A DNA stretch of 55,716 bases from a virus (Duplodnaviria > Caudoviricetes): the IMG/VR virus record IMGVR_UViG_3300025127_000047, positions 1 through 55,716 of that record; one strand, given 5' to 3'. Positions 18,013 through 46,538 of the stretch are shown in pieces (within the stretch, counting starts at the first letter, position 1; every line of letters starts with the position of its first letter). A model generated the notes under the pieces. It was not told the DNA's origin. It saw only the letters and a list, made by a program, of their open reading frames with translations, and searched no databases. The position numbers and the translations under genes are program-made.

Positions 18013-19290
18013 ATGAATATAATAGAACTAGAAGATAACATTAAAGGCTTACCAGATAATAGTTTACAAAATGAAATGGTTAATCCTACTGGTATGTTTC
18101 CACAATACTTAGTTATGTCTGAATTGCAACGCAGACAAGAAATGCGTAAAGACTATCAAGGTCGTATGGCAGCTGAAGAAAAAACTCCTCCGCTTCCATC
18201 TATTCGTGAACAAATGATGGCAGGTATAACTCAACAACAACCAATAATGCAGGATAGCGGCATAGCAGGACTACTACCAGCTCAACCGCAAGGAGCACCA
18301 ATACCACCAACTATGTCCGCTAGTCCTGATGTAATGCCTATGTATGCTGGTGGAGTTGTGCGTATGAATACAGGTACACAAATACCTGATTTGTATGGTT
18401 TAACCACTGAAGAATTAAAATTAGCTGGTTTATATGATGACCCAAATACAGAAGAAGATGAAAGAATAACAAGTTATGAACAAGACATAATAGATTATTA
18501 TAAAACTTTACAAGAAGAACAACCTAAAAAAATAGCAGAAGAAAAAAGATTTGGAGAAGGTTTAAATTTAATGAAGGCAGGTCTTGCATTAGGTACTGCT
18601 GGTACATTTAAAGAGTTAAGTTCAGGATTAGAAAAAACTATAGATAGTATAGATGCAAGTAATAAAGCTATTTCTAAAAAAGAAGATGATTTGAAAAAAT
18701 CTAAATTAGAAAAAGCAAAAGCTATGGCTTCAATAGAAGCTAAAAGAACAGATAGATTAGCAGATTTATCTAAATTAAAAACTGAAAAACAAGCTAAACA
18801 AGCTTTGGCTGATTATTATAAATCTATGGACCCTAAAACTAAACTTAGTGGTCCGGGACAAATAGCTAAAGAAATATTAGATGGTGTATATGGACCACCA
18901 GAAAGTTTAAATATTTATAGAACAACAGATGCAGAAGGAAATGAACTTCCTAAACCAATTATTGATTCTAATAAATTATTAGAATTAGCAGCATCTAAAG
19001 TACCATCAATAGCTTCAGCAGATATTAGAACACTAGGTAGTAAACAAGAAGAACTAGCTAAATTAGTAACAGACCAAATGAGTAAATTTTCAACAATTCA
19101 AGAAGTAATTAATCTTGCAAAAGAAGAAAATATTAGTGAACAAGATGCATACGATAGAATTAAAATGAAAAAAGAACTTGAATTAAGAAAACAATTAGGT
19201 TTAGGTTCAGGAGCAGGTATGTATTCTGGTGGTGTTGTAGGTAAATCTTCTCAAAGTTTTAATGATGTGGTAAAAACCATCAATGCCTAA
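18013..19290 (+). CDS. Internal virion/ejection protein
   Basis: Helical charged protein lying between ejection genes; MYAGGVV and MYSGGVV motifs. Confidence 0.6.
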   Translation: MNIIELEDNIKGLPDNSLQNEMVNPTGMFPQYLVMSELQRRQEMRKDYQGRMAAEEKTPPLPSIREQMMAGITQQQPIMQDSGIAGLLPAQPQGAPIPPTMSASPDVMPMYAGGVVRMNTGTQIPDLYGLTTEELKLAGLYDDPNTEEDERITSYEQDIIDYYKTLQEEQPKKIAEEKRFGEGLNLMKAGLALGTAGTFKELSSGLEKTIDSIDASNKAISKKEDDLKKSKLEKAKAMASIEAKRTDRLADLSKLKTEKQAKQALADYYKSMDPKTKLSGPGQIAKEILDGVYGPPESLNIYRTTDAEGNELPKPIIDSNKLLELAASKVPSIASADIRTLGSKQEELAKLVTDQMSKFSTIQEVINLAKEENISEQDAYDRIKMKKELELRKQLGLGSGAGMYSGGVVGKSSQSFNDVVKTINA

Positions 19291-22200
19291 GTTTGTTCAA
19301 ACACCTGATGGAATAACACACCAGTTACCTGACAGTGTAACTGACGAAAACTATTTAGAAGAAAAAGAAAGATTTTTAGCTAACTATAATAAACCCCAAC
19401 TCCAAGAAGATTTCACTTCACAACCCCAACCCCAACCTCAATCTGAAATATCTACAGACTTACCCGGTCCTGCATTAATTGGTGCAAGTCTTTTAAGTAA
19501 TCTTGAAAAAAATGATGGAAGATTTTTTGATAGAAGAAATTATACTGAAGAAGATTTAGATAGAAGTGGTTTGTTATTACAAACAAGAGGTTCTTTTTCA
19601 AAATTATTTAGTGAGCAAGATGCTACTTACAATAGATTTAAAATATTAGAACAAATAGCAGAGTTAGAAAATGAAAGATTACAAATTTTATCTAAAGATG
19701 TTTTAACTGAAAAAGATAAAACTAGATTAGTTGAAATAGATAGATTAATAAATGAGGGAGAAGCACCAAATATTTCTGTAGAAGAAGCAGAAAAACAATC
19801 TATAAAAGAAGTTACAGATGCTATACCTTATATTCCTAATCCTGCTTTAATGGGCGACCCATCAGTTTATCAAGCAACTACTCTTAATCTTGCAGAAATA
19901 GAAAGAAATAAAAAACTTGGATTAAAAGATACATTAGCATACGAAACAGATAGAAGGGATAAATCTATAGAATTTCAATCAGGTATAAGATACTCTAAAA
20001 GTTTTGAAGACTTAGCTAGTGCTTCATCTTTTGATGAATCTATGGAAATATTTTTATCTGACCCATTAAGTTTAATGGGACAAGTGTTAGCTTCAAGTTC
20101 AGCACCAATGTCTGTATCTTTAACTTCTGGTGTTGTTGGAACTCTTTATGGGGGTCCAATAGTAGGTGCAGCAGCAACAGGTATTGCTTCTGGTTCAGTT
20201 GATGCAGTTTATTCTTTTACAGAATATATGCAAAAACAAGGTGTTGATATATACAATAATGATGATGTTGTAAAATTTTTACAAGACCCAGAAAAAGTAG
20301 CAGCTGCTAAAAAGTATGCAAGAACAAGAGCAACATTTATAGGTGCTTTTGATGCATTATCTTTTGGCTTAGGCTCTAAAATAATAGCACCTGCTAGAAT
20401 TGGTGGTGCTCATAGTAGAGCATTATTTAATTCATTAGTAGTTCAACCGCCATTACAAGGAACATTAGGTGGAGCAGGAGAATACTTTGCACAATTAAGT
20501 ACTTTAGAAGAAGGAGAGCAAATACGAGTTGGTGAAGTGTTTATGGAAGCTATAGGTGAATTAGCTTTTGCTCCTGTAGAAACAACACTAGCACAAGCAG
20601 GTACAGGATTTGCAGAATATAAAAGAATACAACAAGAAGCAATTCAAGAACAAAGAAAAAGATTTAAAAATTTTGAAACAAATTATGCAAACCTTACCCC
20701 AGAACAACAAAAAGCTATAGATGAAAAAGGTGCAGAAGTTTTTGAAAGAATACAAAATAATAATCCAGATAAATCTATAGAAGAAATTTTAGATTTAACA
20801 TATCAAGAATTACAAACAACCTTTGAAGCTTTTGAAGCTCGAAAAATTATTCAAGAAAATCCACTTGAAGATATTGCATACAATAAACTTGGAACAAGAA
20901 ATGAAGTTGTTTTTAAAGCAAATGAAGACGGAACTTTTAGTGTAGTAATTATAGATGAAAGACAGCCTAATAATTTAAAAATTCTTGGTACTTATAATGA
21001 AAAAGAAAAAGCAGCAAAAACTACTAGAGATTTAAACCATCAAATTAATACTTATGTAAATAGACAAACATTTCAAGAAGATGCAGTAATGCAAAACTTA
21101 AATCTTGATAATGAATTTGTAGAAGATTTTGCAAATGAAATATTAAATACTACTCTTGATGGTATATCTTTTGTAGATTTAGAAAGATTAGGGGTTGCTC
21201 CAGAAACTATAGCTCTTTTAAAAGACATAGCACAAAACGATTACACTGTACCGCCAAGTGTATTAAAAGCAAATTTATCTAAAAAACAATTTGATAAAGT
21301 AATGCAATCAAAAGCAGAAACTTTAAATGCTAAACCTAAAAAATCTATAGCAGGTACAGCTTTTAATACTTTATTAAAAAATAAAAATATTGAAAGTGAT
21401 ATTAATTCAGATAGTTTTAAAAGATTTGGATTGCATTTTGTTGGAGAACAAGATGTAAACAAAATGAGTGTAGCTCAAAAAAGAGTATTGTTTACTTTAT
21501 TAGATAACATACCAGCTTCTCCAGATAAAATAAATTTACCAGATTTTACTCCTAGAACTTTTAGTGTTGATGATTACAACAAAGCAAAAACAGAAATAGA
21601 AAATCAAGGTAAAGCTACATTAAAAATAATACAAGATGCAACAGGATTAAATAAAGTATCTGCAAAAAGAATAATGGAGTACTTTGTTACTGCTGGTTAT
21701 GTTAATAAAAAAGGTAACAAGTTTGAATTTGTTGGAACAGAAAATCAAATTTATAACTTAGATGGTACTCGTAGATTAACTTCAGATATAAATTTAAACA
21801 AAAGAATAAAGCGTATTGAAAAAATACTTGTTAATAATAATAAAATAAATCCAAATGTTCGTTCAAAAATAGCAACTTTTTTAGATGAACTTACAGACCC
21901 TAATATTAGAACAATAGCAGGTGGTAGTTATAATGCTACATTTAATGAAATACTTTATACAATAGATAGAGCAGACTTAAATTTATTAGATAAAAAATCA
22001 GACCAATATAATCCAAAAGAATTTTTAGCTACATATGCTAGATTACAAGGACACGAAAACTTTCATGCATTAGTAGAAGCAGGATTATTTACACAAGAAG
22101 AAATAAATGCACTTACAAAATTTGCAACTAATAAAAAAATAAGTAAAAAATATCAAGAAGCATTACAAAGAAAATTAAAAACAGAAGAAAAATATTCTGA

Positions 22201-25200
22201 TAAAACATATCTTGAATTTGCAACTGAACAATATACAGGTGTAGAAGGATATGAAAATCCTAATGATATATTAGAAGAAGCATGGGTTCATGCATTTGAA
22301 GACCTTATTACAACTAATGCAAAAATTACTGGCAGACCAAGAACAGCTTTAGAAAAAGTATCTAATTTTGCAAAAGCTGTAGGCAATGCTTTAGTAGGAA
22401 ATGGATTTTTTACAGTAGAAGATATTGTTGATAAAACATTACAAGGAAAAATAGCAGATAGAAATAGAGGTGTATCAAATAAAATTGAAAATACAAATAC
22501 AATATTTAATATACCTGAAGCAGAAGATGTAATTGTATCTGACCAACCAAGTGTTAAATATAGTGTAAACAGAAACTTATATTCTCAACAAAAAGAAGCA
22601 GAGATTATAAGAAACAAAATAAGTAATACACAAATAATATCAAGAAAATCAGATGGTACACCTATTTTAAATTGGGAACCTCAACTAACTTTAAATGTAT
22701 CTACTTTTATAGACAGCATTAAATTTAAAAATAATTCTGATATACGAGGTGCTGTAGGAAATAGTAACTTAAATATAATTTATTCTAAAATAATTAAATT
22801 ATTAAATAGACCTAAAGAAGAATTAATAAGTCAATATAATTTACAAGATAATGTTATTAATAATATATTAAATCCTATTCAATATAGTAGCCAACAAATA
22901 TTTGTTGAAGCAAATGAAATTTTTAGAAATTATTTACGAAATGAAAACATAGGTAATACAAGAACATTTAATCTAATGCCTTATAAAACATTAGAAGATG
23001 GTTATGAAGGTTTTGTTGTTGGTGAAAAAACAACTGATGCTAATAATTTATATTACAATCCTAGAATTTACAGCAGTCAAGCACAAGCAGAAAAAGCGTT
23101 AGAATCAAATGACGCACAATACAATCCTATACCTAATAGTAATATACAAAAAATTAGAAAGGTAAAGTTTTTTCCAAGAAATATAATTTTTAATCCAGCT
23201 TTATTAGGTTCTAAAGATGTTGAAAATAATTATCTTATTAGAAATCATAGTCCTAACAATATAACGGAGCCAACAACACAACTAATATTTAATAAATTTT
23301 TTGGAAACACTTCAGAATTACTTGTTACTAATGAAGTATTTGCTGGTGAGGTAGAAAGTTTTAATTTAGAAACTAATACACCAAAAATTAAATACTCTTT
23401 AAGAGAAACAAATGGTAGATTAATTGATGATGTAAAAGCAAAATTAGAAGAAGATTCTGGAGCTCCAACATTAGAAGGATATTTTGAACAATTATATGGA
23501 ACTGTTGCATCAATACCTCCAGCAGTAAAACAAATGTTAAGAGATGGGAGAGGAGAAGGTTCAGAATATATAGCACCATTAATGTCTTTAGGTCCAGAAG
23601 CTTTTGTAAAAACAAGAGTAGGCAAAAACACAGGTAAAGGAGTATTTTATTATGCCTTTGAATATCCAGAAGATTTAACTGTAAATCAAGCACAACAATT
23701 TTATGATGCTGTAAATTTTGTTACACAAGAATCTGTAAAATTATTTCCTGAAGAAGTGGTTGTTTATAGAGGAAGTCGTATAGATGATAGTTACAGTTTA
23801 ATTCCTACAACAACTAATAAAAGAATAGCAGAAGCTTTTGGAAAAAATTTAGATAGGAGAGATGAAAGAGTAGAAGAACTTTATTACGATAAAATAAGAG
23901 ATGGTGAAATAAGTTCAGACATAACTCTTGATGAGTTTAGAACAAATCTATTTAGTTCAAAAGGTAGCCCAAGAGATATAGCTAGATATGGTTATAATGT
24001 TCAAAGATTCCTTGTTCCTAAAGAAGCTATTGCAGTTAATATGAACGCTTTGTATAGAGGTGAATCTATACTTGGCGATGATGAAAGAAGTTTATTTTAT
24101 GATAGATATAATTATCAAAATGAACAAGAGCTTTTAATACCTACACAATTTTTAATTGATGATTATGGAGACACTAAAGGTACAGAAGTTTTAACTACGC
24201 ATCTTCAAGATGTTGCAAAAGAAAAAAGGGATAGAATTAGAATAGCAGATGATTTTGCAACTATAACATCTGGAAATTTTGCTGTTCCAAAAGACCAAGT
24301 AAAAACTTTAACCAGAACAGAACTATTAGATGCTAGGGGAGATTTAATAATCTTAGCTAATGACCCAAAGTATCAAACAAATTATGTAAGCGTAGAAGAT
24401 ATATATGAATTAGTAAATCACCCAGCTATGTTAGCTGTACAAAATGAGTCTTTAACTATTCCTGATGTTCTTGATAGTTTAACTTCTGAACAAGTAAATA
24501 AAAGAATAGAAGATATGCGACCTGATTTAATTCGTATAGCTGAAGAATATGCAGGTGGTAATTTAAAATTTGATAAACAAGCAATATTAATAATTGGACC
24601 ACCGGGCACAGGTAAGTCAACATTTGCTGAAGATATAGCAGAAAGAAAAGGTTATGCAATAGTTGATGCTGATGATGCTAAAAAACAAATGCCTGAATTT
24701 AAAAATGGTGTAGGTGCTAACGCTACACACCCATTTTCAAAATTAGTTGCTACTCAAATTCAACAAGAATTTATAGAACAAGGTGCAAATATAATAATTC
24801 CAAAAGTTGCTGGTAAGTCAAGTCGAATAACAGGTAAACCAAAAACAACAGGCATTATAGATACAATAATAGATTTACAAGCAAGAGGATATAAAGTAGA
24901 TGTTGTGTATCCAGATGCTAATATAAATCAAGCAATAATAAGAAATGTTACTAGGTATGGTGAAACAGGAAGATTTGTAAACCTTGATTATTTATTATCT
25001 ATTGATAATAAAGTAAGAGATAGTTATAACATAATAAAAGATTATTTTATTAATGAAAATAAAGGTAGGTATCCTGATATTGGTTTTACATATATTAATA
25101 ATAATTATAAATTAGGAGAGCACATTGTCGAAGAAGATACATCACAATTATTTCAAGACGATAGAGTCGTTGATGAAAGCAGAGGAAGAAGCAGAAAAGG

Positions 25201-28132
25201 CAGGGAGGGAACTTTACCCAAAAATGAAATCACAGAGGAACAAAATGCCCTTGTTGAAATTGCTAAAGAGCAAGAACAAAACTCAATAGAAGCAGGTGTA
25301 ACTCCTGTAATAAATACTAATGCTTCCCCTAGTGCTGTAGCCGCAGCAGTAAAAGCACAACAAGAAATTAAAAATAGTTCGTCTGAAAATAATGCAGATG
25401 TAGATTCTATTCTTTCTGATATACCTAATGATACTAAAATTAAATATTCATTTAATAGAAGTAACAAACCTTTAAATAAAAATGCTGAAGATTTAATAGA
25501 AAATTTAACAGTAAGAGATGACACTATTGAAAATAAAACTACCGGTCAACTTATACTAGAAGGTTTTAAACCAGTAGACCCATTAGCATTTAGAGAAGCT
25601 TTCTTAGACCAGTATGCAAGATTAGCTGAAACAGATTATAAAGCAGGTAGAAAAAATAAATACGGAGATAAGATGTTGCTTGGCAGTATGTCTGCAGGTG
25701 CAGCATTATATTTTTCTGATAGGTCAGGAGATATATTTCAACAAGCATTTTTAAGAGGTGTACCTGTATATGATAAAGATAAAGGATATACCTATGTAAC
25801 TAATGTATCTCCTATAGATGGTAAACCTATAGTTCCATTCTTTGATGTATTCAAACCAGCTTATAAAAATCCTAATTTGCTTTGGGCTTTTCAAGCAGTG
25901 CAAAGAGTTAAAAGAGAAACAAGATTTAACAAAGAAGGAAGAAAAGTAAAAGTAACAGCAGTTGATAGAAAAAGAGCTAAACAAGCTTTAAAAGATTATC
26001 CTGAATTACAAACCATGATTGATGAATATAACAGAACTAATGAACATACAGTTCAATTCTTAATTGATACAGGTGTATTAGATGAACAAACAGGTAAAGA
26101 ATGGTTAGCAAATTCAGATTACATTCCTTTTTATAGACCACTTGAAGGAGTTGAAGGATTTAAAGGACCAAAAATATTTCAAGGTTTATCTATAACTCCA
26201 TTTCAAAGAGCAAAAGGTAGTGAAGAAAAAGATATTGTTGACCCAATAACAGGCATTACAAATAATTTAAGAGCAGCTATAAATTTAGGTATGAAAAATA
26301 TAGCAGCTAATAGAGTAATGCGTAACTTTGTAGACATGGATATAGCTAAGAGAGTTAAAGGTAATGTTAAAGGACCAGACATTGTTACGATAAGAGTTAA
26401 TGGTAAAAATGTAAACTATAAAGTAGATGACCCAATGTTATATCAATCTTTTAGTGTTATGAGTCAAGGAGACTTTGCACCACAAGGATTGCTTATGAAT
26501 ATATTAAGAGGAACTAAAGGATTTGTAAGTGATTTAATTACAAGAGTTCCTGACTTTTGGTTTAGACAAATAGTAAGAGACTCTGCGTCTGCTTATGTTT
26601 TAAGTGGTGCTAATTATGTACCAATAATATCTTCTATTAAAGAAAGTATGAGTATAGCTAAAGGAATGATTACCGGTAATCTTCCAGATGAGTTTGTAAA
26701 ATTAAGAAATGCAGGAATAATTACAGGCTATGACAAAGGTGTAAGAGATATAGATAGTACTGAAAAACTTATAAATGGTTTATATAAAAATGCTTTTAAA
26801 AGTGAAAGACCATTAGCACAAAAAGTTTATATGTTTCCTATAGATTTATTAACTACTATATGGGACATAATGGGACAAGGTACAGCTATAACAGATGCTG
26901 CTACTAGAGTTGCTGTATATAAAGACACATTAAAAAGAACAGGCAATGAAGCTGAAGCTATATTCCAAGCATTAGAAGTTTTAAACTTTACAAGGCGTGG
27001 TAATAATCAGATGTTTCAATTATATGCACAGTCAACTATGTTTTTAAATCCAAGACTGCAAGGACTAGATGTTTTTTATAGAGGACTAACAGGAAGATAT
27101 GGTATAGGTAAAGGTTTATCAAGAAGTAAAAGAATGAAAGCTGTAATGATGAGAGTTGCAGCTATGGCTTCTTTATCTGTATTTTATTATTTATTAGCAA
27201 GAGACTCTGAAGAATATGAAGAAGCACCTGAAGAAATAAAGGATGCTTATTTAATTATTCCGGGCAGTAAAAAATTAGTTGGACAACCAATAGCTATACC
27301 TAAACCTTTTGAAGTAGGACTACTAACAATGACTATTCCCGAAAGGCTTACCTCTTATGCTATGGACGATATAGCAGGTAAAGATGTCGCAGATAGTTTA
27401 AAAAGAAATATAACTCATACTCTTGCAATAACACCACCAACAGCAGTTGACCCATTATTAGAAAACTTTTTTAACTATGATTTCTTTACAGGTAGACAAA
27501 TAGTACCTGATTATTTAGAGGGTACAGGAGACTTAGCATACAGACCACAAACAGATACTCTATCTAAAGTTATAGGAGATGAGTTAAACATAAGTCCTTT
27601 GTATGTAGAAAATTTATTTAGAAGTTATACTGGAACATTAGGCTCTTGGATTATGATGGCAACAGATAGTTTAATTAGAGAAGGTTTAACAGATGCAGAA
27701 AGAGTAAAGTTTGGACTCGACAGACTTCCAGTTGTAGGAACTTTTCTTTTACCAGCAGAGGGAAGCAACTATGAAAATCAATTCTATAGTTTAAAAGGAG
27801 ATGTTGATGATTTAGTTGCAACATTTAGACAGATAGAAAGTAATGTTGTTGATAAAGGAGATGGGTACGCTTTAGGAATGATTGATGAGTATAAGATAGA
27901 ATATCAAGATGCGTTAAAAGATTTACAGTCAGAGCTTACAGATACAGCCGACCAACTTAAAGAAATAAGAAACTTAGAATCTCAAATAATTAATAGCACA
28001 ACCCTTTCTTCCGAAGAAAAGAAAAGACAACTAGATAATATAAAGTCTATTAAGAATGATTTATTAAAAGGAATACCAGAACAACGCAAGTTTTATCTGG
28101 AAGAATTTAAAGAAAGAGCTGTAGTAAGATAA
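19283..28132 (+). CDS. Giant (2949 aa) polyvalent virion/ejection protein: hydrophobic helices, winged-helix, HExxH peptidase, ART-like, zeta-toxin-like kinase, LPD38-like C-terminus
   Basis: GHENFHAL..EEAW; VYRG..PTTTNKRIAEAF..NEQELL; GPPGTGKS..DADDAKK; YIPFYR, LNFTRRG..MFLNPRLQGLD, IPKPFEVG, NYDFFTGRQIVP. Confidence 0.85.
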   Translation: MPKFVQTPDGITHQLPDSVTDENYLEEKERFLANYNKPQLQEDFTSQPQPQPQSEISTDLPGPALIGASLLSNLEKNDGRFFDRRNYTEEDLDRSGLLLQTRGSFSKLFSEQDATYNRFKILEQIAELENERLQILSKDVLTEKDKTRLVEIDRLINEGEAPNISVEEAEKQSIKEVTDAIPYIPNPALMGDPSVYQATTLNLAEIERNKKLGLKDTLAYETDRRDKSIEFQSGIRYSKSFEDLASASSFDESMEIFLSDPLSLMGQVLASSSAPMSVSLTSGVVGTLYGGPIVGAAATGIASGSVDAVYSFTEYMQKQGVDIYNNDDVVKFLQDPEKVAAAKKYARTRATFIGAFDALSFGLGSKIIAPARIGGAHSRALFNSLVVQPPLQGTLGGAGEYFAQLSTLEEGEQIRVGEVFMEAIGELAFAPVETTLAQAGTGFAEYKRIQQEAIQEQRKRFKNFETNYANLTPEQQKAIDEKGAEVFERIQNNNPDKSIEEILDLTYQELQTTFEAFEARKIIQENPLEDIAYNKLGTRNEVVFKANEDGTFSVVIIDERQPNNLKILGTYNEKEKAAKTTRDLNHQINTYVNRQTFQEDAVMQNLNLDNEFVEDFANEILNTTLDGISFVDLERLGVAPETIALLKDIAQNDYTVPPSVLKANLSKKQFDKVMQSKAETLNAKPKKSIAGTAFNTLLKNKNIESDINSDSFKRFGLHFVGEQDVNKMSVAQKRVLFTLLDNIPASPDKINLPDFTPRTFSVDDYNKAKTEIENQGKATLKIIQDATGLNKVSAKRIMEYFVTAGYVNKKGNKFEFVGTENQIYNLDGTRRLTSDINLNKRIKRIEKILVNNNKINPNVRSKIATFLDELTDPNIRTIAGGSYNATFNEILYTIDRADLNLLDKKSDQYNPKEFLATYARLQGHENFHALVEAGLFTQEEINALTKFATNKKISKKYQEALQRKLKTEEKYSDKTYLEFATEQYTGVEGYENPNDILEEAWVHAFEDLITTNAKITGRPRTALEKVSNFAKAVGNALVGNGFFTVEDIVDKTLQGKIADRNRGVSNKIENTNTIFNIPEAEDVIVSDQPSVKYSVNRNLYSQQKEAEIIRNKISNTQIISRKSDGTPILNWEPQLTLNVSTFIDSIKFKNNSDIRGAVGNSNLNIIYSKIIKLLNRPKEELISQYNLQDNVINNILNPIQYSSQQIFVEANEIFRNYLRNENIGNTRTFNLMPYKTLEDGYEGFVVGEKTTDANNLYYNPRIYSSQAQAEKALESNDAQYNPIPNSNIQKIRKVKFFPRNIIFNPALLGSKDVENNYLIRNHSPNNITEPTTQLIFNKFFGNTSELLVTNEVFAGEVESFNLETNTPKIKYSLRETNGRLIDDVKAKLEEDSGAPTLEGYFEQLYGTVASIPPAVKQMLRDGRGEGSEYIAPLMSLGPEAFVKTRVGKNTGKGVFYYAFEYPEDLTVNQAQQFYDAVNFVTQESVKLFPEEVVVYRGSRIDDSYSLIPTTTNKRIAEAFGKNLDRRDERVEELYYDKIRDGEISSDITLDEFRTNLFSSKGSPRDIARYGYNVQRFLVPKEAIAVNMNALYRGESILGDDERSLFYDRYNYQNEQELLIPTQFLIDDYGDTKGTEVLTTHLQDVAKEKRDRIRIADDFATITSGNFAVPKDQVKTLTRTELLDARGDLIILANDPKYQTNYVSVEDIYELVNHPAMLAVQNESLTIPDVLDSLTSEQVNKRIEDMRPDLIRIAEEYAGGNLKFDKQAILIIGPPGTGKSTFAEDIAERKGYAIVDADDAKKQMPEFKNGVGANATHPFSKLVATQIQQEFIEQGANIIIPKVAGKSSRITGKPKTTGIIDTIIDLQARGYKVDVVYPDANINQAIIRNVTRYGETGRFVNLDYLLSIDNKVRDSYNIIKDYFINENKGRYPDIGFTYINNNYKLGEHIVEEDTSQLFQDDRVVDESRGRSRKGREGTLPKNEITEEQNALVEIAKEQEQNSIEAGVTPVINTNASPSAVAAAVKAQQEIKNSSSENNADVDSILSDIPNDTKIKYSFNRSNKPLNKNAEDLIENLTVRDDTIENKTTGQLILEGFKPVDPLAFREAFLDQYARLAETDYKAGRKNKYGDKMLLGSMSAGAALYFSDRSGDIFQQAFLRGVPVYDKDKGYTYVTNVSPIDGKPIVPFFDVFKPAYKNPNLLWAFQAVQRVKRETRFNKEGRKVKVTAVDRKRAKQALKDYPELQTMIDEYNRTNEHTVQFLIDTGVLDEQTGKEWLANSDYIPFYRPLEGVEGFKGPKIFQGLSITPFQRAKGSEEKDIVDPITGITNNLRAAINLGMKNIAANRVMRNFVDMDIAKRVKGNVKGPDIVTIRVNGKNVNYKVDDPMLYQSFSVMSQGDFAPQGLLMNILRGTKGFVSDLITRVPDFWFRQIVRDSASAYVLSGANYVPIISSIKESMSIAKGMITGNLPDEFVKLRNAGIITGYDKGVRDIDSTEKLINGLYKNAFKSERPLAQKVYMFPIDLLTTIWDIMGQGTAITDAATRVAVYKDTLKRTGNEAEAIFQALEVLNFTRRGNNQMFQLYAQSTMFLNPRLQGLDVFYRGLTGRYGIGKGLSRSKRMKAVMMRVAAMASLSVFYYLLARDSEEYEEAPEEIKDAYLIIPGSKKLVGQPIAIPKPFEVGLLTMTIPERLTSYAMDDIAGKDVADSLKRNITHTLAITPPTAVDPLLENFFNYDFFTGRQIVPDYLEGTGDLAYRPQTDTLSKVIGDELNISPLYVENLFRSYTGTLGSWIMMATDSLIREGLTDAERVKFGLDRLPVVGTFLLPAEGSNYENQFYSLKGDVDDLVATFRQIESNVVDKGDGYALGMIDEYKIEYQDALKDLQSELTDTADQLKEIRNLESQIINSTTLSSEEKKRQLDNIKSIKNDLLKGIPEQRKFYLEEFKERAVVR

Positions 28133-40248: not shown

Positions 40249-41250
40249 TTAAGCCCCAATATCTTGATATTCAATTTCGTAGTCAATGTACGCTTTTGTT
40301 TTCTTCAAGCCCTCATCTCTAGCAGTAGCCATAGTCATAGCCATAACTAAAAATTCATCTTGAATTTCTTCAGTATCTTTCAAGAAATCATAGTACTTTT
40401 GGATATTGTTCTTGTTCATGTTTTTAGCTAGAACACCAACAATCAGATAAATCACATCAGATTGAAGTTCAATATCTTCAAGCACACTTTCAGGATTTTT
40501 GACTAAGTTATCAACATCAGGTAAGTTTCTGAATCTTCTCACAAATGCTGTAAACTCTGCGGAAATACCCTCTCCAATAGCACCTGCATAAAGTTCTTGC
40601 TCTATGTCGCTATCAGGGTCAGTAGCAAGTAAATTACTTGTATATTCCCATGCTCTAGGCGTTGCATTGACTGAAGCATTTTTATCAAAATGATATAAAT
40701 AATCTTCGCCTTGCCATGAAATAAAAGACAACACTTCTTGTCTTATTCTTCCAGTTTTACCGCCCCACTCAATCCACTCATCATGGCATACATCTAAGTT
40801 CAAATGAACAAATCTGTCTCCAAGAGCAGTATTGACTCTATTTGCACCTGCTTTGTCTTGCACTCTATTACCCGCACTTACAATCACAGTATCTTCAGGC
40901 AATGTGTATTCGCCAAGCTTTCTATCCTTAATCAACTGAAACAATGCGTTTTGCACAGATGGACTGCCTTGCGGAAGTTCATCAAGAAACAACAATGTTT
41001 TAGGCTGTTCATTACTAGGTAAAAATACAGGCGGATTAAAAACAGTTCTTCCATCTTTAACACTAGGTACACCTCTAAGGTCAACAGGGTCAAGTAAGGC
41101 AACCCTTACATCTTCAACCCTGTATCCCAAGTTTTCAGCTACTTTGTGGACAATCTCTGATTTACCCACTCCAACTCCACCCCATATAAAACAGGGCTGT
41201 TTGATAGAGATTAATTTCTCTATCGTTTTTTCTAATTGCTTTGCTTTCAT
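40249..41250 (-). CDS. MoxR-like AAA+ ATPase
   Basis: WGGVGVGKS, DPVDLRGVP, LLFLDEL, SAGNR, DRFVH, TPRAWE; start moved to ATG 41250. Confidence 0.9.
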   Translation of the reverse strand: MKAKQLEKTIEKLISIKQPCFIWGGVGVGKSEIVHKVAENLGYRVEDVRVALLDPVDLRGVPSVKDGRTVFNPPVFLPSNEQPKTLLFLDELPQGSPSVQNALFQLIKDRKLGEYTLPEDTVIVSAGNRVQDKAGANRVNTALGDRFVHLNLDVCHDEWIEWGGKTGRIRQEVLSFISWQGEDYLYHFDKNASVNATPRAWEYTSNLLATDPDSDIEQELYAGAIGEGISAEFTAFVRRFRNLPDVDNLVKNPESVLEDIELQSDVIYLIVGVLAKNMNKNNIQKYYDFLKDTEEIQDEFLVMAMTMATARDEGLKKTKAYIDYEIEYQDIGA

Positions 41251-41258
41251 ATTTACTC

Positions 41259-41402
41259 CTATAAAATTATTAAAGCCACTACAACAAGTACTAAGGCTAT
41301 AGGCTTTAGCACATACCAATTTATTCTAAACAAAAGACTTTCACTGCATTGTTTAGCAAAGTCTTTTTTGAATAGATTCCATTCTTTTTTAAATGTTTCC
41401 AT
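41259..41402 (-). CDS. Small membrane protein (METFKKEW...IALVLVVVALIIL)
   Basis: 47-aa ORF read manually; GGAG RBS; hydrophobic C-terminus. Confidence 0.6.
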   Translation of the reverse strand: METFKKEWNLFKKDFAKQCSESLLFRINWYVLKPIALVLVVVALIIL

Positions 41403-41442
41403 ACTTACTCCAGTAGAAACTAATTAATTTTTCTAAATAAAA

Positions 41443-41497
41443 ATACTGTTTCGTGGTATCTCATTCAGCTACAACTACCAATGTTGTAGGACAGTAT
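41443..41497 (-). ncRNA. Type III hammerhead ribozyme with variant core CUGAAUGA and loop I-loop II pseudoknot
   Basis: AUACUGU-C-CUACAAC-AUUGGUA-GUUGUAG-CUGAAUGA-G-AUACCA-C-GAA-ACAGUAU: 7-bp stem III, GUC site, 7-bp stem I, UGGUA/UACCA pseudoknot. Confidence 0.85.
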
Positions 41498-41597
41498 AAA
41501 AAAAAAGTAAGTACTTACTATCAGGAAAGATAAGGGGCTACAGCCAATATGAATAATAGCTTTTAGGAAAGCCATAGCCCCACATCTTTACAAAAGA

Positions 41598-41825
41598 TTA
41601 ATCAAAGTTAGCAACCCAACTTTGCTTTGTTTTGCCACTAGGAAGCTTTACTGCTTCTGCTTCGATAACATAATCCGCTTCAGCCAATATGTGTATCGTA
41701 TCAAACGATAATGTTTTACCGCCTTGTATTTTCAGGAACATTTTTGCAGTATCACAAACTGGATAATACAAAGTTCTTCCATACACCTTTTCAGGTCTTA
41801 CAATTATTTTAGTTTTTGTTTCCAT
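41598..41825 (-). CDS. Small early protein (VYGRTLYYPVC..AK.F..I.G.KTL)
   Basis: ORF with TAGGAGTAAAT RBS. Confidence 0.65.
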   Translation of the reverse strand: METKTKIIVRPEKVYGRTLYYPVCDTAKMFLKIQGGKTLSFDTIHILAEADYVIEAEAVKLPSGKTKQSWVANFD

Positions 41826-41833
41826 ATTTACTC

Positions 41834-42079
41834 CTATGTAAATTTTTTATCAAGTTGCCATAAATTAAATACTTTCATAGCATCTTCTCTAGTCAATCCT
41901 AGACTTCTTCTATTTAAAAAGAACTCTCTAGGGTCATTTTCGGGTACATCTTCAAGATGTTCGTATGTTGTCATGCCACTAGATAATTCTTCTAATTCTA
42001 GTGTAGACCACGCAATTTGTGATGAACTTGTAATAGTATCATCATTCAGATATTGCTCTGCTGTATATCCATATTTCAT
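41834..42079 (-). CDS. Small early protein
   Basis: ORF with AAGGAGTAAAT RBS. Confidence 0.6.
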   Translation of the reverse strand: MKYGYTAEQYLNDDTITSSSQIAWSTLELEELSSGMTTYEHLEDVPENDPREFFLNRRSLGLTREDAMKVFNLWQLDKKFT

Positions 42080-42081
42080 AT

Positions 42082-42396
42082 TTACTCCTTATTTATTCTT
42101 CCATAGTTATTAGCTTCAAGGCTTTTGACATACGCTATTGTTTCTGCAACCTCATCTGCTGTTTGATAGCTTTGAACATCATCTCCCTTGTATTTTAAAA
42201 ACTTTCCATTTGGTTTAAATATTGCTGTCTCACAATTATTACAGCTATCTAAACTGTGAAGATTGCTTTTAGCTAGAAATTTATTTGAACAATAGTTTAT
42301 TCTGCCAAATTGAATAGATACCTCATATCCATTTTCAAAAGACATATTTAAGCCTAGATAAAGTCCTTCTTTATCATCTTTTCTTATTTTTAACAT
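42082..42396 (-). CDS. Small early protein (F.NGYEVSIQFG..NYCSN)
   Basis: ORF with TAGGAGT RBS. Confidence 0.65.
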   Translation of the reverse strand: MLKIRKDDKEGLYLGLNMSFENGYEVSIQFGRINYCSNKFLAKSNLHSLDSCNNCETAIFKPNGKFLKYKGDDVQSYQTADEVAETIAYVKSLEANNYGRINKE

Positions 42397-42416
42397 ACTT
42401 ACTCCTATAAAAATTT

Positions 42417-42477
42417 ACCTAGAAAGCGAACAAATGTCCGCTTTTTCGCCACCTTTCTGTGTTGCTTATCAATAGGT
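42417..42477 (-). ncRNA. Type I hammerhead ribozyme with C3U/G8A compensatory core
   Basis: ACCUA-UUGAUAA-GC(AA)CAC AGAAAG GUGGC-GAA-AAAGCGGAC AUUU GUUCGCUUU-C-UAGGU; all three stems pair; UUC site. Confidence 0.8.
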
Positions 42478-42480
42478 TTA

Positions 42481-42876
42481 TTAGAAATTTCTATCGTACA
42501 TTTCTTGCGTTTCATATCTATCGTGAACAGGTAGATATTTAGGTATTGGATAACCAACAAATGCTTTTAATTGTTGACAAATATCAAATGGTATTTCAGC
42601 AATTACTCCATTATTCATAGCACCAATTAAATTAGGTCTATCTTCGTTATATGGCTTCAAATGAAAGCCAAATTGTCTTCTATACTCTAATTTATAAAGA
42701 TTTTTATTATTTTTATCTTCTTCAGCAGTAGCACAATATTTGCTAAAAACCAGTTCATCTTTTCTATCTTCATTATTCCAGTCTATTTCTTTTGAAATCA
42801 CTATCTCATCAAGCCCATTGGTATAACCTTTGCTACCATATTTTGATGTAGTGATTGTTGCTGTATTAAAACTCAT
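42481..42876 (-). CDS. Early hypothetical protein
   Basis: ORF with TAGGAGTAAAT RBS; C-terminal LPVHDRYE. Confidence 0.65.
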   Translation of the reverse strand: MSFNTATITTSKYGSKGYTNGLDEIVISKEIDWNNEDRKDELVFSKYCATAEEDKNNKNLYKLEYRRQFGFHLKPYNEDRPNLIGAMNNGVIAEIPFDICQQLKAFVGYPIPKYLPVHDRYETQEMYDRNF

Positions 42877-42909
42877 ATTTACTCCTATAAAAATTAATAT
42901 ATTTACCTA

Positions 42910-43173
42910 TTAAGAAATCCATTTTTGTAAGTTTGGATTATCTTCGCCTTTCATTCCATGATGTTCACAATATAATTTCATTGCACTGTCAATTCTTCTG
43001 TCAACACTACGTTTCAGTTCTTCTCTACTCCAAAAGTGCATTTTCATAGCACCATTCAGCCCCATGTATGAAACACTTTTTACATTACCATTGAATGTTG
43101 TGTCTCTATGCACATTGAAATAAAACCCTCTGTAATTCACAACAAAATCGTTTACTTTAGTTATTTTATTCAT
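42910..43173 (-). CDS. First gene of the early operon, hypothetical
   Basis: Start moved to ATG 43173 behind TAGGAGTAAAT. Confidence 0.6.
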   Translation of the reverse strand: MNKITKVNDFVVNYRGFYFNVHRDTTFNGNVKSVSYMGLNGAMKMHFWSREELKRSVDRRIDSAMKLYCEHHGMKGEDNPNLQKWIS

Positions 43174-43188
43174 ATTTACTCCTAAATA

Positions 43189-43248
43189 AATTATGTTTCT
43201 TGTACCCTTGCGGATACTCATTCAGCTTGTTAATTCAAGGACATAATC
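43189..43248 (-). ncRNA. Type III hammerhead-like ribozyme, variant (CUGAAUGA core, AA insert before GAAA)
   Basis: GAUUAUGU-C-CUUG AAUUAA CAAG-CUGAAUGA-GUAUCC GCAA GGGUAC-AA-GAA-ACAUAAUU. Confidence 0.7.
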
Positions 43249-43279
43249 AAATATTAAATCGTTAATACATAAGAAAAAA

Positions 43280-43725
43280 AACTCACAACAGCATGGGATT
43301 TTCTGACTACACACAACACCTATTAGCCCCTAGAGATAGACTTTGCTACACCATCAGAATTAGCACTTTTACTGCTACGCCCTGTTCCATGTTCTGTGGG
43401 AACTAAAGCCAACTTTAAAAACTCCATCAAGGGTAGAGTCGCCACACTCTCCGCAAGACAGGTATTGAGCCATCAATAGCAACACTGTCAGGACACTGGG
43501 TAAACGCACAAACTTTTGAAAAGCGGATTTTTCGTGATAGGGATTCCCAGTTTACCCTGTTCTGTTTGCTTCCTTGATACCTTGCATTGCTCTAGGCAAC
43601 CCAAATCGTTAGTCTTTATTGCAAAGCCCAACTTCAAGGAAACTAGATGTCTCACTATGGGTGTTTTGGAAAGGGGAGTTAGCTACTGTTTCTTCGCTTT
43701 TTTGGGTCTCATCAATCCCTCAACG
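43280..43725 (-). ncRNA. Candidate large structured non-coding/leader RNA (about 430-450 nt)
   Basis: More than 10 complementary segments in nested multibranch arrangement; ends pair (43295-43300 with 43714-43719); mismatches read as G-U on the minus strand; directly downstream of a promoter. Confidence 0.65.
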
Positions 43726-43731
43726 AAACGA

Positions 43732-43761
43732 ACTATAGTTTATTGTGGGGTATCGTGTCAA
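43732..43761 (-). promoter_or_regulatory. Sigma70-like early promoter TTGACA-N18-TATAGT
   Basis: Perfect -35 (43761-43756), TATAGT -10 (43737-43732), AT-rich upstream tract. Confidence 0.7.
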
Positions 43762-43803
43762 GAAAAAAGTGTAATTATTTTCTACAAATGTTCGTGAACA
43801 TAT

Positions 43804-43833
43804 TTGTTGTTGCTTACGAAGTAAGCGTATAAT
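43804..43833 (+). promoter_or_regulatory. Probable terS promoter: TATAAT at 43828-43833 preceded by the palindrome GCTTAC-GAA-GTAAGC
   Basis: Perfect -10, weak -35; inverted repeat 43812-43826. Confidence 0.4.
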
Positions 43834-43897
43834 AGACCTACAGTGATAGTAAGCACTATCAAAATAATTTTAAATATTAAGGAATTAATAGATAGAT

Positions 43898-44368
43898 ATG
43901 AGCAATAAAGACAGTAATAACAAGGACAATATAACTAACATATCAGGGCTTACTCCAAAGCAAGAGAAGTTCGTTCAAGGTGTCTTATCAGGTATGACAG
44001 CAAGTGAGTCATATCGCAACGCATATAGCACAGAGAACATGAAAGATAGTAGCGTATGGACAGAAGCTTCAAAGCTTATGAGTAGCCCTAAGGTATCCCA
44101 AAGGGTAAAGCAGGGATTGAAGCGAAAGAATGAGTATGCTTCCACTACAGGGCTCTCCCTTAGACAGATGGTACTGGAACAGCTACAAAAGGAAGCACTG
44201 GATACAAATAACAATGAATCATCAAGAATAAGGGCTTTGGAACTACTAGGCAAAGTATCAGAGGTGGCATTATTCACAGAGAGATTAGAAACAACTACAA
44301 GCAATCAATCATCAGATGAGATAAGACTGGAACTAGAACAGAAGATACAGTCAATGTTTAATAAGTAA
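43898..44368 (+). CDS. terS: Terminase small subunit
   Basis: LTPKQEKFV......ASESYRNAY...ASKLM..PKV..., RIRALELLGK. Confidence 0.85.
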   Translation: MSNKDSNNKDNITNISGLTPKQEKFVQGVLSGMTASESYRNAYSTENMKDSSVWTEASKLMSSPKVSQRVKQGLKRKNEYASTTGLSLRQMVLEQLQKEALDTNNNESSRIRALELLGKVSEVALFTERLETTTSNQSSDEIRLELEQKIQSMFNK

Positions 44369-44495
44369 GTACTCACTATCAGGGAAACCCTTTTTGCATA
44401 TGGATTTACCCCACCTACCCCCACCCACCCACATATAAAAAAATTGTGTGTATGGGGTACATACTATTTTGCACATATAATTTCATAATTTTCAT

Positions 44496-44514
44496 AGGGG
44501 GGTACCCCTTTTTT
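44496..44514 (+). terminator. Intrinsic terminator candidate AGGGG-GGTA-CCCCT-TTTTT
   Basis: GC stem plus T tract downstream of terS. Confidence 0.5.
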
Positions 44515-44598: not shown

Positions 44599-44853
44599 AT
44601 GACAAGTAAACAATTAAAACTTTTAGAAACCATAGAAGAATACTGGGACGAGTTTGGTTGCGGTCCTAGTCTTGATGCTTTAGCTGACGCTTTAGGTTTA
44701 TCCTCTAAGAGCACCATACACGCTATGCTACATAGATTAAAAGATGGTGGCTGGGTTACTATGCAACCTAATAGATGGCGTACAGTGATGAGCACTAGAA
44801 ACAGTCCATTTAAAAAAGTTGAAAAAACTATTGACGAATCTGTGAAGGTATGA
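44599..44853 (+). CDS. LexA-type winged-helix DNA-binding protein lacking the peptidase domain
   Basis: MT.KQ..LL..I.......G.GPS...LA.ALGL.SKSTIH..L..L...GW......R.R. Confidence 0.85.
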   Translation: MTSKQLKLLETIEEYWDEFGCGPSLDALADALGLSSKSTIHAMLHRLKDGGWVTMQPNRWRTVMSTRNSPFKKVEKTIDESVKV

Positions 44854-45050: not shown

Positions 45051-46538
45051 ATGTTTGATATTGATAAGTTAAGCACACTGTCCCCTCAACAACAAAAAGA
45101 AGTGTTAGAGATAGTTGCTCGATATGAGTCTGCTAAACGCAGAGAGAACTGCTCTGATGACTTCATTGCTTTTGTGAAAGAAATGTGGGCTGCCTTTATT
45201 GAAGGTTATCACCATAAGATTATGTCTGATGCTTTCAATGATGTTAAAAACGGCAAGTTAAAGCGTTTGATTATAAATATGCCCCCTAGACATACAAAAT
45301 CAGAGTTTGCTTCTTATCTATTACCCGCTTGGTTTTTAGGCTGCTTTCCACAAAAGAAGATAATCCAAGTGGCTCACACTGCAGAACTTGCTGTAGGTTT
45401 TGGTCGTAAGGTTAGAAACCTTGTTGGTTCTGCAGATTTTAAAAAAGTTTTTAGTGATGTGGGTTTGCAATCGGATAGTAAGGCTGCTGGTCGTTGGAAT
45501 ACGAATAAAGGCGGAGAATACTTTGCGATTGGTGTAGGCGGTGCTGTAACTGGTAAAGGTGCGGACTTGCTTATCATAGATGACCCTCATTCAGAACAAG
45601 AGGGACAAAGTAATGACCCTTCTGTGTTTGACAAGGTGTATGAATACTATACATCTGGTCCCCGTCAGCGTCTGCAACCCGGTGGTGCAATCATTATTGT
45701 AATGACAAGATGGCACAAACGGGACCTGACTGGGCAAATACTAAAGTCTTCAGCCCAAAGAGATGGTGCTGATGAATGGAAAGTTATAGAGTTTCCTGCG
45801 ATATTGCCATCAGGTAAAAGTTTATGGCAAGAGTTTTGGGATATAAAAGAACTAGAAAAGTTACGAGCAGAGTTACCTTTATCTAAATGGTCTGCTCAAT
45901 ATCAACAAAACCCTACTGCAGAAGAATCTGCAATTATTAAACGAGAATGGTGGCGTGTCTGGGAGTACGACAATCCCCCACAATGCGATTTTATAATTCA
46001 GTCATGGGATACAGCCTTTTTAAAAACACAGCGTTCTGACTACTCTGCGTGTACGACATGGGGTGTTTTTTACCAACCAGACGATACAGGTGTAACACAG
46101 CCTAATGTAATACTCTTAGATGCGTATAAAGAAAGATTAGAGTTTCCAGAATTAAAAAAGAAAGCTTTTGAAATGTATAAAGATTGGCAACCAGAAGCTT
46201 TTATTGTAGAAGCTAAAGCTGCAGGTATGCCTTTAATCTTTGAACTTAGGCAAATGGGAATACCAGTATCAGAATACACGCCTAGTCGTGGTAATGATAA
46301 AATAGCAAGGGTTAATGCTGTTGCTGATTTATTTGCATCTGGTATTGTATGGGCACCTGAAAGAAAGTTTGCAGAAGAAGTTATAGAAGAATTTGCATCT
46401 TTTCCTGCTGGTGAACATGATGACTTAGTTGACTCATCAACCCAAGCATTAATAAGATTTAGACAAGGTGGGTTTATTCCTTTACACTCTGACGAAGAAG
46501 AAGAAGATTTACCGCCAAGAGAAGCCAATTATTATTAG
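45051..46538 (+). CDS. terL: Terminase large subunit
   Basis: RLIINMPPRHTKSE, GKGADLLIIDDPH, IVMTRWH, SWDTAF, EAKAAG, HDDLVDS; start 45051 (ATG) or 45039 (GTG). Confidence 0.95.
   Translation: MFDIDKLSTLSPQQQKEVLEIVARYESAKRRENCSDDFIAFVKEMWAAFIEGYHHKIMSDAFNDVKNGKLKRLIINMPPRHTKSEFASYLLPAWFLGCFPQKKIIQVAHTAELAVGFGRKVRNLVGSADFKKVFSDVGLQSDSKAAGRWNTNKGGEYFAIGVGGAVTGKGADLLIIDDPHSEQEGQSNDPSVFDKVYEYYTSGPRQRLQPGGAIIIVMTRWHKRDLTGQILKSSAQRDGADEWKVIEFPAILPSGKSLWQEFWDIKELEKLRAELPLSKWSAQYQQNPTAEESAIIKREWWRVWEYDNPPQCDFIIQSWDTAFLKTQRSDYSACTTWGVFYQPDDTGVTQPNVILLDAYKERLEFPELKKKAFEMYKDWQPEAFIVEAKAAGMPLIFELRQMGIPVSEYTPSRGNDKIARVNAVADLFASGIVWAPERKFAEEVIEEFASFPAGEHDDLVDSSTQALIRFRQGGFIPLHSDEEEEDLPPREANYY

Follow-up and report, generated by a model that had tools for sequence, protein, structure and literature searches.

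The viral contig IMGVR_UViG_3300025127_000047 has three sites on its minus strand that are, in our judgement, probably genuine self-cleaving ribozymes of the hammerhead class; they lie in a leftward operon of a marine pelagiphage-like phage and would resolve its polycistronic transcript into units. The whole contig of 55,716 nucleotides (nt) was analysed and is called the window here. The identification of the sites as hammerheads is well supported by sequence comparison, because each has the junction, the catalytic nucleotides, homologues with compensatory changes and a conserved order. A function in transcript processing is plausible and, by analogy with other arrays, has precedent. The three predicted ribozymes are as follows.

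43189–43248, minus strand: c1, type III hammerhead (sequence, junction in the minimum free energy (MFE) fold, family covariation, synteny)
42417–42477, minus strand: c2, type I hammerhead (sequence, fold, homologues with a compensatory 3-8 pair)
41443–41497, minus strand: c3, type III hammerhead (sequence, sub-threshold Hammerhead_3 alignment, covarying relatives)

Three hammerhead sites in one operon

A preliminary description of this DNA had placed hammerheads of types III, I and III at these coordinates. Junction fits, together with homologues carrying compensatory changes, agree with that assignment. The placement and polarity it gave are also correct: all three sites are intergenic, on the minus strand and in the same sense as the flanking open reading frames (ORFs), with predicted cuts at 43240, 42422 and 41490. 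Every catalytic letter is present in c1, c2 and c3. An extra base follows A6 in c1 and c3, two A lie between C11.1 and G12 in c1, and pair 3-8 of c2 is U3-A8. Helices I, II and III occur in the order of the stated type, as a full junction in c1 and c2 and with stem II reduced to a G-C pair plus a pseudoknot in c3. Folded without constraints, c1 and c2 adopt the three-way junction as their MFE structure (z-scores of −2.2 and −2.6); the MFE structure of c3 contains stems I and III.

A relaxed type I/type III descriptor, composed after the candidates were known, was run on both strands of the window and matched exactly c1, c2 and c3. The same descriptor applied to 200 dinucleotide shuffles gave a type I match in none, one type III match in three and two type III matches in none. 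Because three matches are found in the window and almost none in the shuffles, a chance origin of the three sites is excluded. The III-I-III order is common to the window and the related loci L004, L023 and L037, with a start codon 10 to 54 nt after each ribozyme, while the genes between the ribozymes differ among the four. The preliminary description had proposed covariation in related phages as a check; changes on both sides are present in 6 of 13 pairs (c1 family), 4 of 12 (c2) and 7 of 14 (c3).

The c1 site and its family

Stem III of c1 (AUUAUGU/ACAUAAU) has 7 base pairs (bp) and leads to a GUC cut site, with the predicted cut 3′ of C17 at 43240. Stem I has 4 bp (CUUG-AAUUAA-CAAG, 43239–43226) and is followed by the core strand CUGAAUGA (43225–43218), which is 8 nt long as against the usual 7. 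Stem II (43217–43202, GUAUCC-GCAA-GGGUAC) comprises 6 bp and a GCAA loop. An AA bulge (43201–43200) then precedes G12-A13-A14-A15.1 at 43199–43196. Syntenic copies of c1 are found in L004, L023, L037, L071, L102 and L213.

We defined a type A family by GUC, a 4-bp stem I with an AAUUAA loop, CUGA(N)NGA, a stem II of the form G-WAUCC...GGGUW-C, AA and GAAAC; c1 agrees with this definition at every position. Members were retrieved from viral contigs with the pattern GAATTAACNNGCTGAN{1,2}GAG, which fixes only loop I and part of the core, and the scan gave at least 119 loci. Among the matches listed (two of which come from a scan of genome contigs), 92 of 100 unique anchors bear three features outside the pattern, namely U16.1-H17-C1.1 in register, two stem I pairs and a downstream CAAGAAA. 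One of the other eight is broken by a contig end and seven are without the features. The genome-contig scan gave only its two matches, both without the family's upstream U-H-C and stem I features, and identified no prophage or host. On these sequence features the c1 family is a set of at least 92 unique predicted type III hammerheads in marine viral contigs.

The family alignment holds 77 of 85 parsed rows; six rows whose stem II bears a long insertion were excluded, as were two chance matches. In this alignment 99.8% of 1001 cells are paired. The covariation score was reached by 0 of 500 shuffles, and slid controls pair at 22–42%. The catalytic nucleotides U16.1, C3, U4, G5, G8, A9, G12-A14 and A15.1 are invariant in all 77 members. 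Among the 92 unique members listed, 31 have U at N7, 21 have A and 6 have C; the remaining members have the 8-nt core strand, with AU in 30 and AC in 4. A 7-nt twin that is identical elsewhere exists for 8 of the 29 aligned 8-nt members, and a twin within three differences for 20 of 29. When loop I and the two bases before GAAAC were left free in a second scan, all 46 sequences had AA and 45 of the 46 had AAUUAA. Loop I and the AA bulge of c1 are both invariant, so there is no covariation between them to read.

In a related hammerhead of L088 the same loop caps a stem I of 5 bp, and a bulge of 2 nt lies two pairs into stem II; this single example fits a contact between loop I and the stem II bulge. 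One metagenome contig of a relative has a different upstream sequence, bearing an anti-Shine–Dalgarno (anti-SD) element, joined to c1 exactly at 43243, the boundary between stem III and the cut site. A model of the type A family, R1, scores c1 at 67 bits, c1 being inside its training alignment. R1 gave no match in HTVC027P, HTVC023P or 023Pt_psg01; the same search is positive in the window and in two family contigs.

The c2 site

c2 begins 3 nt past the stop codon of the ORF at 42876–42481. Stem I has 5 bp (ACCUA/UAGGU, 42477–42473 with 42421–42417). In the core strand UUGAUAA (42472–42466), U3-A8 replaces C3-G8. Stem II (42465–42448) is bulged, GC(AA)CAC-AGAAAG-GUGGC, and GAA follows at 42447–42445. 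Stem III is a 9-bp hairpin (42444–42423) closed by an A-U pair, and the predicted cut lies 3′ of C17 at 42422.

The 11 distinct homologues of c2 have 100% of 130 counted cells paired, and the four of 12 counted pairs that changed on both sides include pair 3-8, which is CG in seven homologues and UA in four. Circularity was checked by using a stem II motif as the sole anchor and leaving the core strand and stems I and III free. All 13 unique sequences recovered in this way (13/13) have a complementary 3-8 pair (nine CG, four UA), stem I and stem III. Applied to 1.68 Mb of retrieved phage loci, the descriptor gave 39 unique type I and 34 unique type III hammerheads; with c2 of the window the type I set comes to 40, of which 36 have C3/G8 and four U3/A8. 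H17 in this set is C in 35 and A in 5. The UUGAUAA core is carried by the window, by L004/L213 (two copies) and by L211, and CUGAUGA or CUGAAGA stands at the same operon position in L023, L037 and L102. Judged by its homologues, c2 is a canonical member of its family with a compensatory core change.

Stem III of the c2 homologues is made by three unrelated hairpins, all closed by A15.1-U16.1 and then followed by C17. A G-U to G-C change in c2 stem III, plus a loop change, is seen in relatives' contigs. Pairing between the 5′ flank of c2 and loop II is possible in three of four variants and absent in one; the c2 pseudoknot was set aside as inconsistent between copies. Scans of viral contigs for the c2 type and for the c3 architecture (type B, below) gave, beyond the window's relatives and the L014 group, only chance matches in coding regions. 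We note that in L004 (3613–3965) two copies of c2 flank an extra ORF of 62 amino acids (aa). Positions 42880–42915 of the window (minus strand), just before the ORF starting at 42876, resemble the 3′ flank of an L004 c2 copy but are without a ribozyme. Several hammerheads of mixed architecture (type A, type I and canonical type III without the AA bulge) occur within a few kb in L070, L017, L013, L115, L162 and others.

The c3 site

Stem III (AUACUGU/ACAGUAU) and stem I of c3 each have 7 bp, and the predicted cut lies 3′ of C17 at 41490. The core strand is again the 8-nt CUGAAUGA (41468–41461). Between A9 and G12 there is only G-AUACCA-C, then GAAA, and stem II is the single pair G41460-C41453. 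Within the 6-nt loop, UACCA (41458–41454) is complementary to UGGUA of loop I (41480–41476), a predicted pseudoknot. This architecture, a type III hammerhead with a one-pair stem II and a pseudoknot, is called type B.

The c3 group has seven distinct sequences, from the window, L004, L023, L037 and the L014 group, with 88.8% of 98 cells paired. The seven of 14 pairs that changed on both sides all belong to stems I and III, and the score was reached by 0 of 500 shuffles. The pseudoknot pairing UGGUA/UACCA of the window group becomes UGGCUA/UAGCCA in the L014 group, and the energy of this 6-bp form was matched by only 1–3 of 500 shuffles. Model R1, which was not trained on c3, gives it 17.7 bits (E 0.013); c2 was not reported. 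A third match to CTGAATGAG, at 45586–45594, is antisense within a terminase gene and was dismissed as chance.

Rfam searches

The preliminary description had warned that standard searches might miss the sites, and they do. Rfam at gathering threshold gave 0 matches in the whole window, and the search of 41000–44500 at E ≤ 10 gave none either. Searches with 86 nt around c1 and c2 at E ≤ 10 also gave no hammerhead match. c3 aligns end to end with Hammerhead_3 (RF00008) at 16.6 bits, the cut-off being 48.5. The same silence extends to the family: 12 type A loci gave 0 matches at gathering, and L065, a type A member with the canonical core, gave no hammerhead match at E ≤ 10. A canonical type III hammerhead in the L072 contig (G007, 723–777) reaches 42.8 bits against 48.5 (RF00008), and a canonical type I in the L013 contig (G006, 10501–10564) reaches 17.2 against 34 (RF00163). 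Because canonical hammerheads in related phage contigs also fall below the cut-offs, the silence of Rfam says little about class membership. A large part of the hammerheads in marine phages escapes the current Rfam models and their cut-offs, and model-based surveys therefore under-count them.

Ribosome-binding sites

The start codons at 43173, 42396 and 41402 lie 15, 20 and 40 nt past the ends of c1, c2 and c3. Each is preceded by a Shine–Dalgarno (SD) sequence, so the earlier statement that the ribozymes stand upstream of ribosome-binding sites for these three ORFs holds.

43179–43183, minus strand: SD AGGAG for the ORF starting at 43173, 6 nt past the 3′ end of c1
42402–42406, minus strand: SD AGGAG for the ORF starting at 42396, within the 5′-OH product of the predicted c2 cut
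41408–41412, minus strand: SD UGGAG for the 47-aa ORF starting at 41402, downstream of c3

The coupling extends across type A, all counts here being among the matches listed. An SD and start codon are present within 45 nt in 88 of 92 unique members, with the start at a median of 22 nt after A15.1. CUCC or CCUC occurs no more than 18 nt upstream of the cut in 65 of 92, compared with 0/92 and 5/92 in control windows further upstream. In the MFE folds of 44 of 88 members, at least three of the four SD bases are paired to the strand 5′ of the cut. An ORF starts within 60 nt downstream in 78 of 82 members, and a same-strand ORF of at least 50 codons ends within 120 nt upstream in only 19 of 82. What is apparently new at the level of the family is the combination of ribozymes about 22 nt upstream of starts, frequent anti-SD/SD pairing and, frequently, a large structured leader upstream.

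Leader RNAs, operon and host

The leader and its surroundings comprise the following features.

43732–43761, minus strand: sigma-70-like promoter TTGACA-18-TATAGT (consensus scan; 11/12 hexamer positions agree; consensus match only)
43249–43725, minus strand: structured leader RNA, about 480 nt long, lying between promoter and c1 (conserved; predicted pairs)
41505–41525, minus strand: 21-nt motif with a 14-nt perfect palindrome, then U9, directly upstream of c3 (scan of repeats)

The promoter probably drives the leader and the operon, going by its sequence, and the 5′ end of the leader was placed from it. No ORF longer than 55 aa is found on the minus strand of the leader. It is kept in six contigs at 91% identity, and RNAalifold predicts 146 pairs, of which 23 have compensatory changes. 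A search of the window leader against Rfam at E ≤ 10 gave no match. By eye the leader is richer in GC than its AT-rich flanks.

By blastn the regions upstream of 94 unique type A members (among the matches listed) form clusters of 64, 19, 7, 2, 1 and 1, the cluster of seven being the window's group. The largest (64/94; for example L094, L077, L080, L111 and L127, plus 21 other loci) has a conserved leader of about 280–450 nt that starts near the motif AATGCTCACA and includes hairpins with covariation, which in one block of 100 nt affects 8 of the 11 predicted pairs. This leader appears to be noncoding. An nhmmer profile of the largest-cluster leaders gave no match to the window leader, and the two have no sequence similarity. 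A common architecture is seen in both; we make no claim of common ancestry from their sequences.

The leftward (minus-strand) operon runs from the sigma-70-like promoter through the structured leader RNA of about 480 nt and five small ORFans to genes for a MoxR-type AAA ATPase, DUF3150 and DUF2201/VWA. The five small ORFs have no Pfam or PHROG match. The 47-aa ORF that follows c3 (41259–41402, minus strand) immediately precedes the gene for the MoxR-type ATPase. Its product has a hydrophobic C-terminus, is kept in L004 and is probably a small protein of the membrane. The 21-nt motif upstream of c3 has a second copy at 44363–44383 (minus strand), where the small-terminase gene ends, which makes two matches with 0 expected. 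It was not called by a terminator scan and no promoter consensus was found in it. The motif could be an operator for the nearby helix-turn-helix protein (44599–44853) or a weak terminator.

The 55.7-kb contig is estimated to be 96% complete. A SAR11 host is a reasonable inference, and nothing more, because the large terminase is 55% identical to the terminases of the Pelagibacter phages HTVC027P and HTVC023P. Blastn against 50,697 phage records gave no match for the operon region, and blastn of a canonical type A ribozyme against phage records gave none. A 2949-aa ORF at 19283–28132 (plus strand) has LPD38 (large polyvalent protein) and zeta-toxin-like/AAA domains; it resembles proteins of the large polyvalent kind from phages and conjugative elements.

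Proposed processing and other readings

As we picture it, each ribozyme would cut 3′ of its C17 (43240, 42422 and 41490) during transcription, with a 2′,3′-cyclic phosphate left upstream and a 5′-OH downstream. The c1 cut would separate the leader RNA from the mRNA and so set the 3′ end of the leader. The c2 cut would fall after the stop codon, 3 nt and the ribozyme; the folded body, with its GC-rich 9-bp hairpin, would stay on the 3′ end of the upstream message, and a 26-nt unstructured leader bearing the next SD would be freed. At c1 and c3, which are of type III, the folded ribozyme would remain as a cap-like structure on the 5′ end of the downstream message. The net effect would be a polycistron split into units, each with a 5′-OH end 15–40 nt before its start codon and insulated from upstream sequence. 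The benefit may be stability, as in the separately stabilised cassettes of the preliminary description, or it may be insulation or translational licensing. Masking of the SD would fit most relatives and not the window contig, because the SDs of the window lie outside the ribozyme stems.

Several observations weigh against the proposal that c1, c2 and c3 are active ribozymes processing an early transcript. None of the listed sequencing runs contains the region as RNA. Three metagenome contigs of relatives are without 19 nt of the 5′ half of c2 (42458–42480) and keep the stem III hairpin; because of them, c2 is by its sequence record dispensable in some relatives. The sole assayed natural hammerhead with an extra base after A6 described in the text of PMC3088659 had low activity, and c1 and c3 carry such a base. 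The AA bulge before G12 in c1 is not among the variants described in the text of PMC3088659. In c3 there is no hairpin at stem II, and the pseudoknot of 5 bp, taken by itself, does not reach significance (46 of 500 shuffles were as good). No Rfam hammerhead model reaches its cut-off for any of the three. The family rows were pulled with patterns drawn from the elements and are mutually related, so that the counts overstate the number of independent events. The promoter consensus match and the gene order are the sole grounds on which the operon would be called early and its transcript given this extent.

Some of these points would suit hammerhead-derived elements that are catalytically weak or dead and are kept as RNA structure, as 3′ protective hairpins, attenuators or folds of the 5′ untranslated region. 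This would apply chiefly to c1 and c3, with the 8-nt strand, and to the GC-rich hairpin of c2 and the UUUCU after it. The low activity of the A6a insertion and the relatives that retain only the hairpin of c2 favour it, as does the position of c3 after a palindrome and U9 and of the L088 hammerhead directly after a terminator. We nevertheless regard decay as improbable: the catalytic nucleotides do not vary in the 77 aligned type A members, pair 3-8 varies only in a compensatory manner (13/13), the 7-nt twins suit a tolerated or tuned variant better than decay, and the c2 hairpin was not called by the terminator scan. Far less probable still, and already disfavoured, is the reading that the likeness to hammerheads is fortuitous or belongs to sites acting as DNA, for instance operators or junctions of cassette recombination. 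The gene content between the conserved elements does vary in related phages, and the upstream sequence of one metagenome contig switches exactly at 43243. Against this, shuffles almost never yield such matches, and base pairing is conserved through compensatory changes on one strand only, which is a signature at the level of RNA; a mosaic junction at the ribozyme is also compatible with a portable ribozyme module. A different purpose for active ribozymes, translational licensing and not stabilisation, is a tentative alternative that we hold to be rather unlikely. The ribozymes would then serve chiefly to remodel the ribosome-binding region: an anti-SD (CUCC/CCUC), present 5′ of the cut in most family members, would pair with the SD in an extended stem III, and cleavage would release that strand, turn on the gene and free the leader; the window copies would be a relaxed form with the SD just outside stem III. 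All the type A figures given above speak for it: SD and start within 45 nt (88/92), CUCC/CCUC near the cut as compared with the controls (65/92), MFE pairing of the SD to the strand 5′ of the cut (44/88), and an ORF start after the ribozyme in 78/82 as against a same-strand ORF before it in only 19/82. On the other side, none of the three SDs of the window is inside a ribozyme stem, the subgroup of c1 has no anti-SD, extended stems of 10–12 bp may not dissociate after cleavage, and the other 44 of 88 MFE folds favour a local hairpin or leave the SD free.

Returning to transcript processing by active hammerheads as the preferred reading, we would extend it, speculatively, to a wider scheme. Marine pelagiphage-like phages may have a modular, ribozyme-punctuated first operon in which a promoter is followed by a leader of 300–480 nt; a type III ribozyme, with anti-SD and SD paired in its stem III, would release the leader and license the first gene. 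Ribozymes of types I and III would bound the downstream cassettes, keeping their places as portable expression punctuation when genes are exchanged, and a 7/8-nt toggle would tune the cleavage rate. If true, this would give genomic hammerheads in phages a concrete and testable function. The locus and its relatives form a compact natural system for the study of hammerhead function, with three architectures in one operon, and natural 7-nt/8-nt twins as well as C3-G8/U3-A8 twins at the same genomic position are available for comparison. The wider families deserve to be followed further, together with their leader RNAs and the link, seen throughout the family, to ribosome-binding sites.

Comparison with known systems

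Perreault et al. (2011, PMC3088659) reported prophage genes with several hammerheads on their flanks and proposed that long transcripts are processed into gene-length mRNAs; cleavage was demonstrated for three such arrays in vitro and for one in E. coli. The window resembles these prophage and phage arrays in having hammerheads of mixed type within about 2 kb, in the sense orientation, between single genes or short blocks. It differs in being a marine pelagiphage-like genome of lytic type, in that all three sites are variants of core or architecture, in the 480-nt leader that the first site follows, and in being known here from sequence. The words ‘ribosome’, ‘Shine’ and ‘translation’ do not occur in PMC3088659. 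A 2019 review (PMC6765202) describes the function of bacterial and phage hammerheads as still open.

Among the natural variants reported in PMC3088659 are hammerheads with U3-A8 covariation, with a base inserted as A6a, and with a stem II of one pair plus a loop I pseudoknot. They correspond to the U3-A8 of c2, to the extra base after A6 in c1 and c3, and to the single G-C pair of stem II with the 5-bp pseudoknot of c3. The deviation of the cores from CUGANGA, to which the preliminary description drew attention, is thus real but was overstated, since these three departures are documented natural variants (PMC3088659). Unlike those variants, the 8-nt strand of type A is common and alternates with the 7-nt strand in otherwise identical ribozymes. 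The invariant AA bulge (C11.1-G12) and the AAUUAA loop on a 4-bp stem I are likewise not mentioned in the text of PMC3088659, whose supplementary alignments may hold such sequences. Our literature searches found no description of a natural SD-masking hammerhead, of an 8-nt strand as the common form or of an AA bulge, again with the proviso that the supplementary alignments of PMC3088659 may hold such sequences; searches on CUGAAUGA and on the loop and bulge motifs gave nothing relevant.

The HHphage element of the haloviruses HF1 and HF2 (PMC3088659) is, like the sites described here, a core-variant hammerhead close to a gene start, 13 nt before one in the early region. It belongs to an archaeal halovirus, has its insertions near C3 and stem I, is salt-dependent and occurs as a single element and not in an array. 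Hammerheads in the 5′ untranslated regions of RNA viruses are used in translation initiation (PMC13725137). These are also viral and conserved just upstream of ORFs, and some have 1–2 bp or no helix II. They are of type I, are found in eukaryotic RNA viruses and serve cap-independent translation, unlike the SD-led genes of a DNA phage.

The Rfam families Hammerhead_3 (RF00008) and Hammerhead_1 (RF00163) have the same fold and core as the sites of the window, which score far under their cut-offs. In engineered bacterial devices a hammerhead stem masks the ribosome-binding site, and ribozyme insulators are placed before the ribosome-binding site. No natural counterpart of the SD-masking designs was found described in our literature searches. 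The likeness is that a hammerhead stands directly 5′ of the SD and that cleavage would define the 5′ end or free the SD. The devices are synthetic; the type A family, if it acts in this way, would be their natural counterpart.

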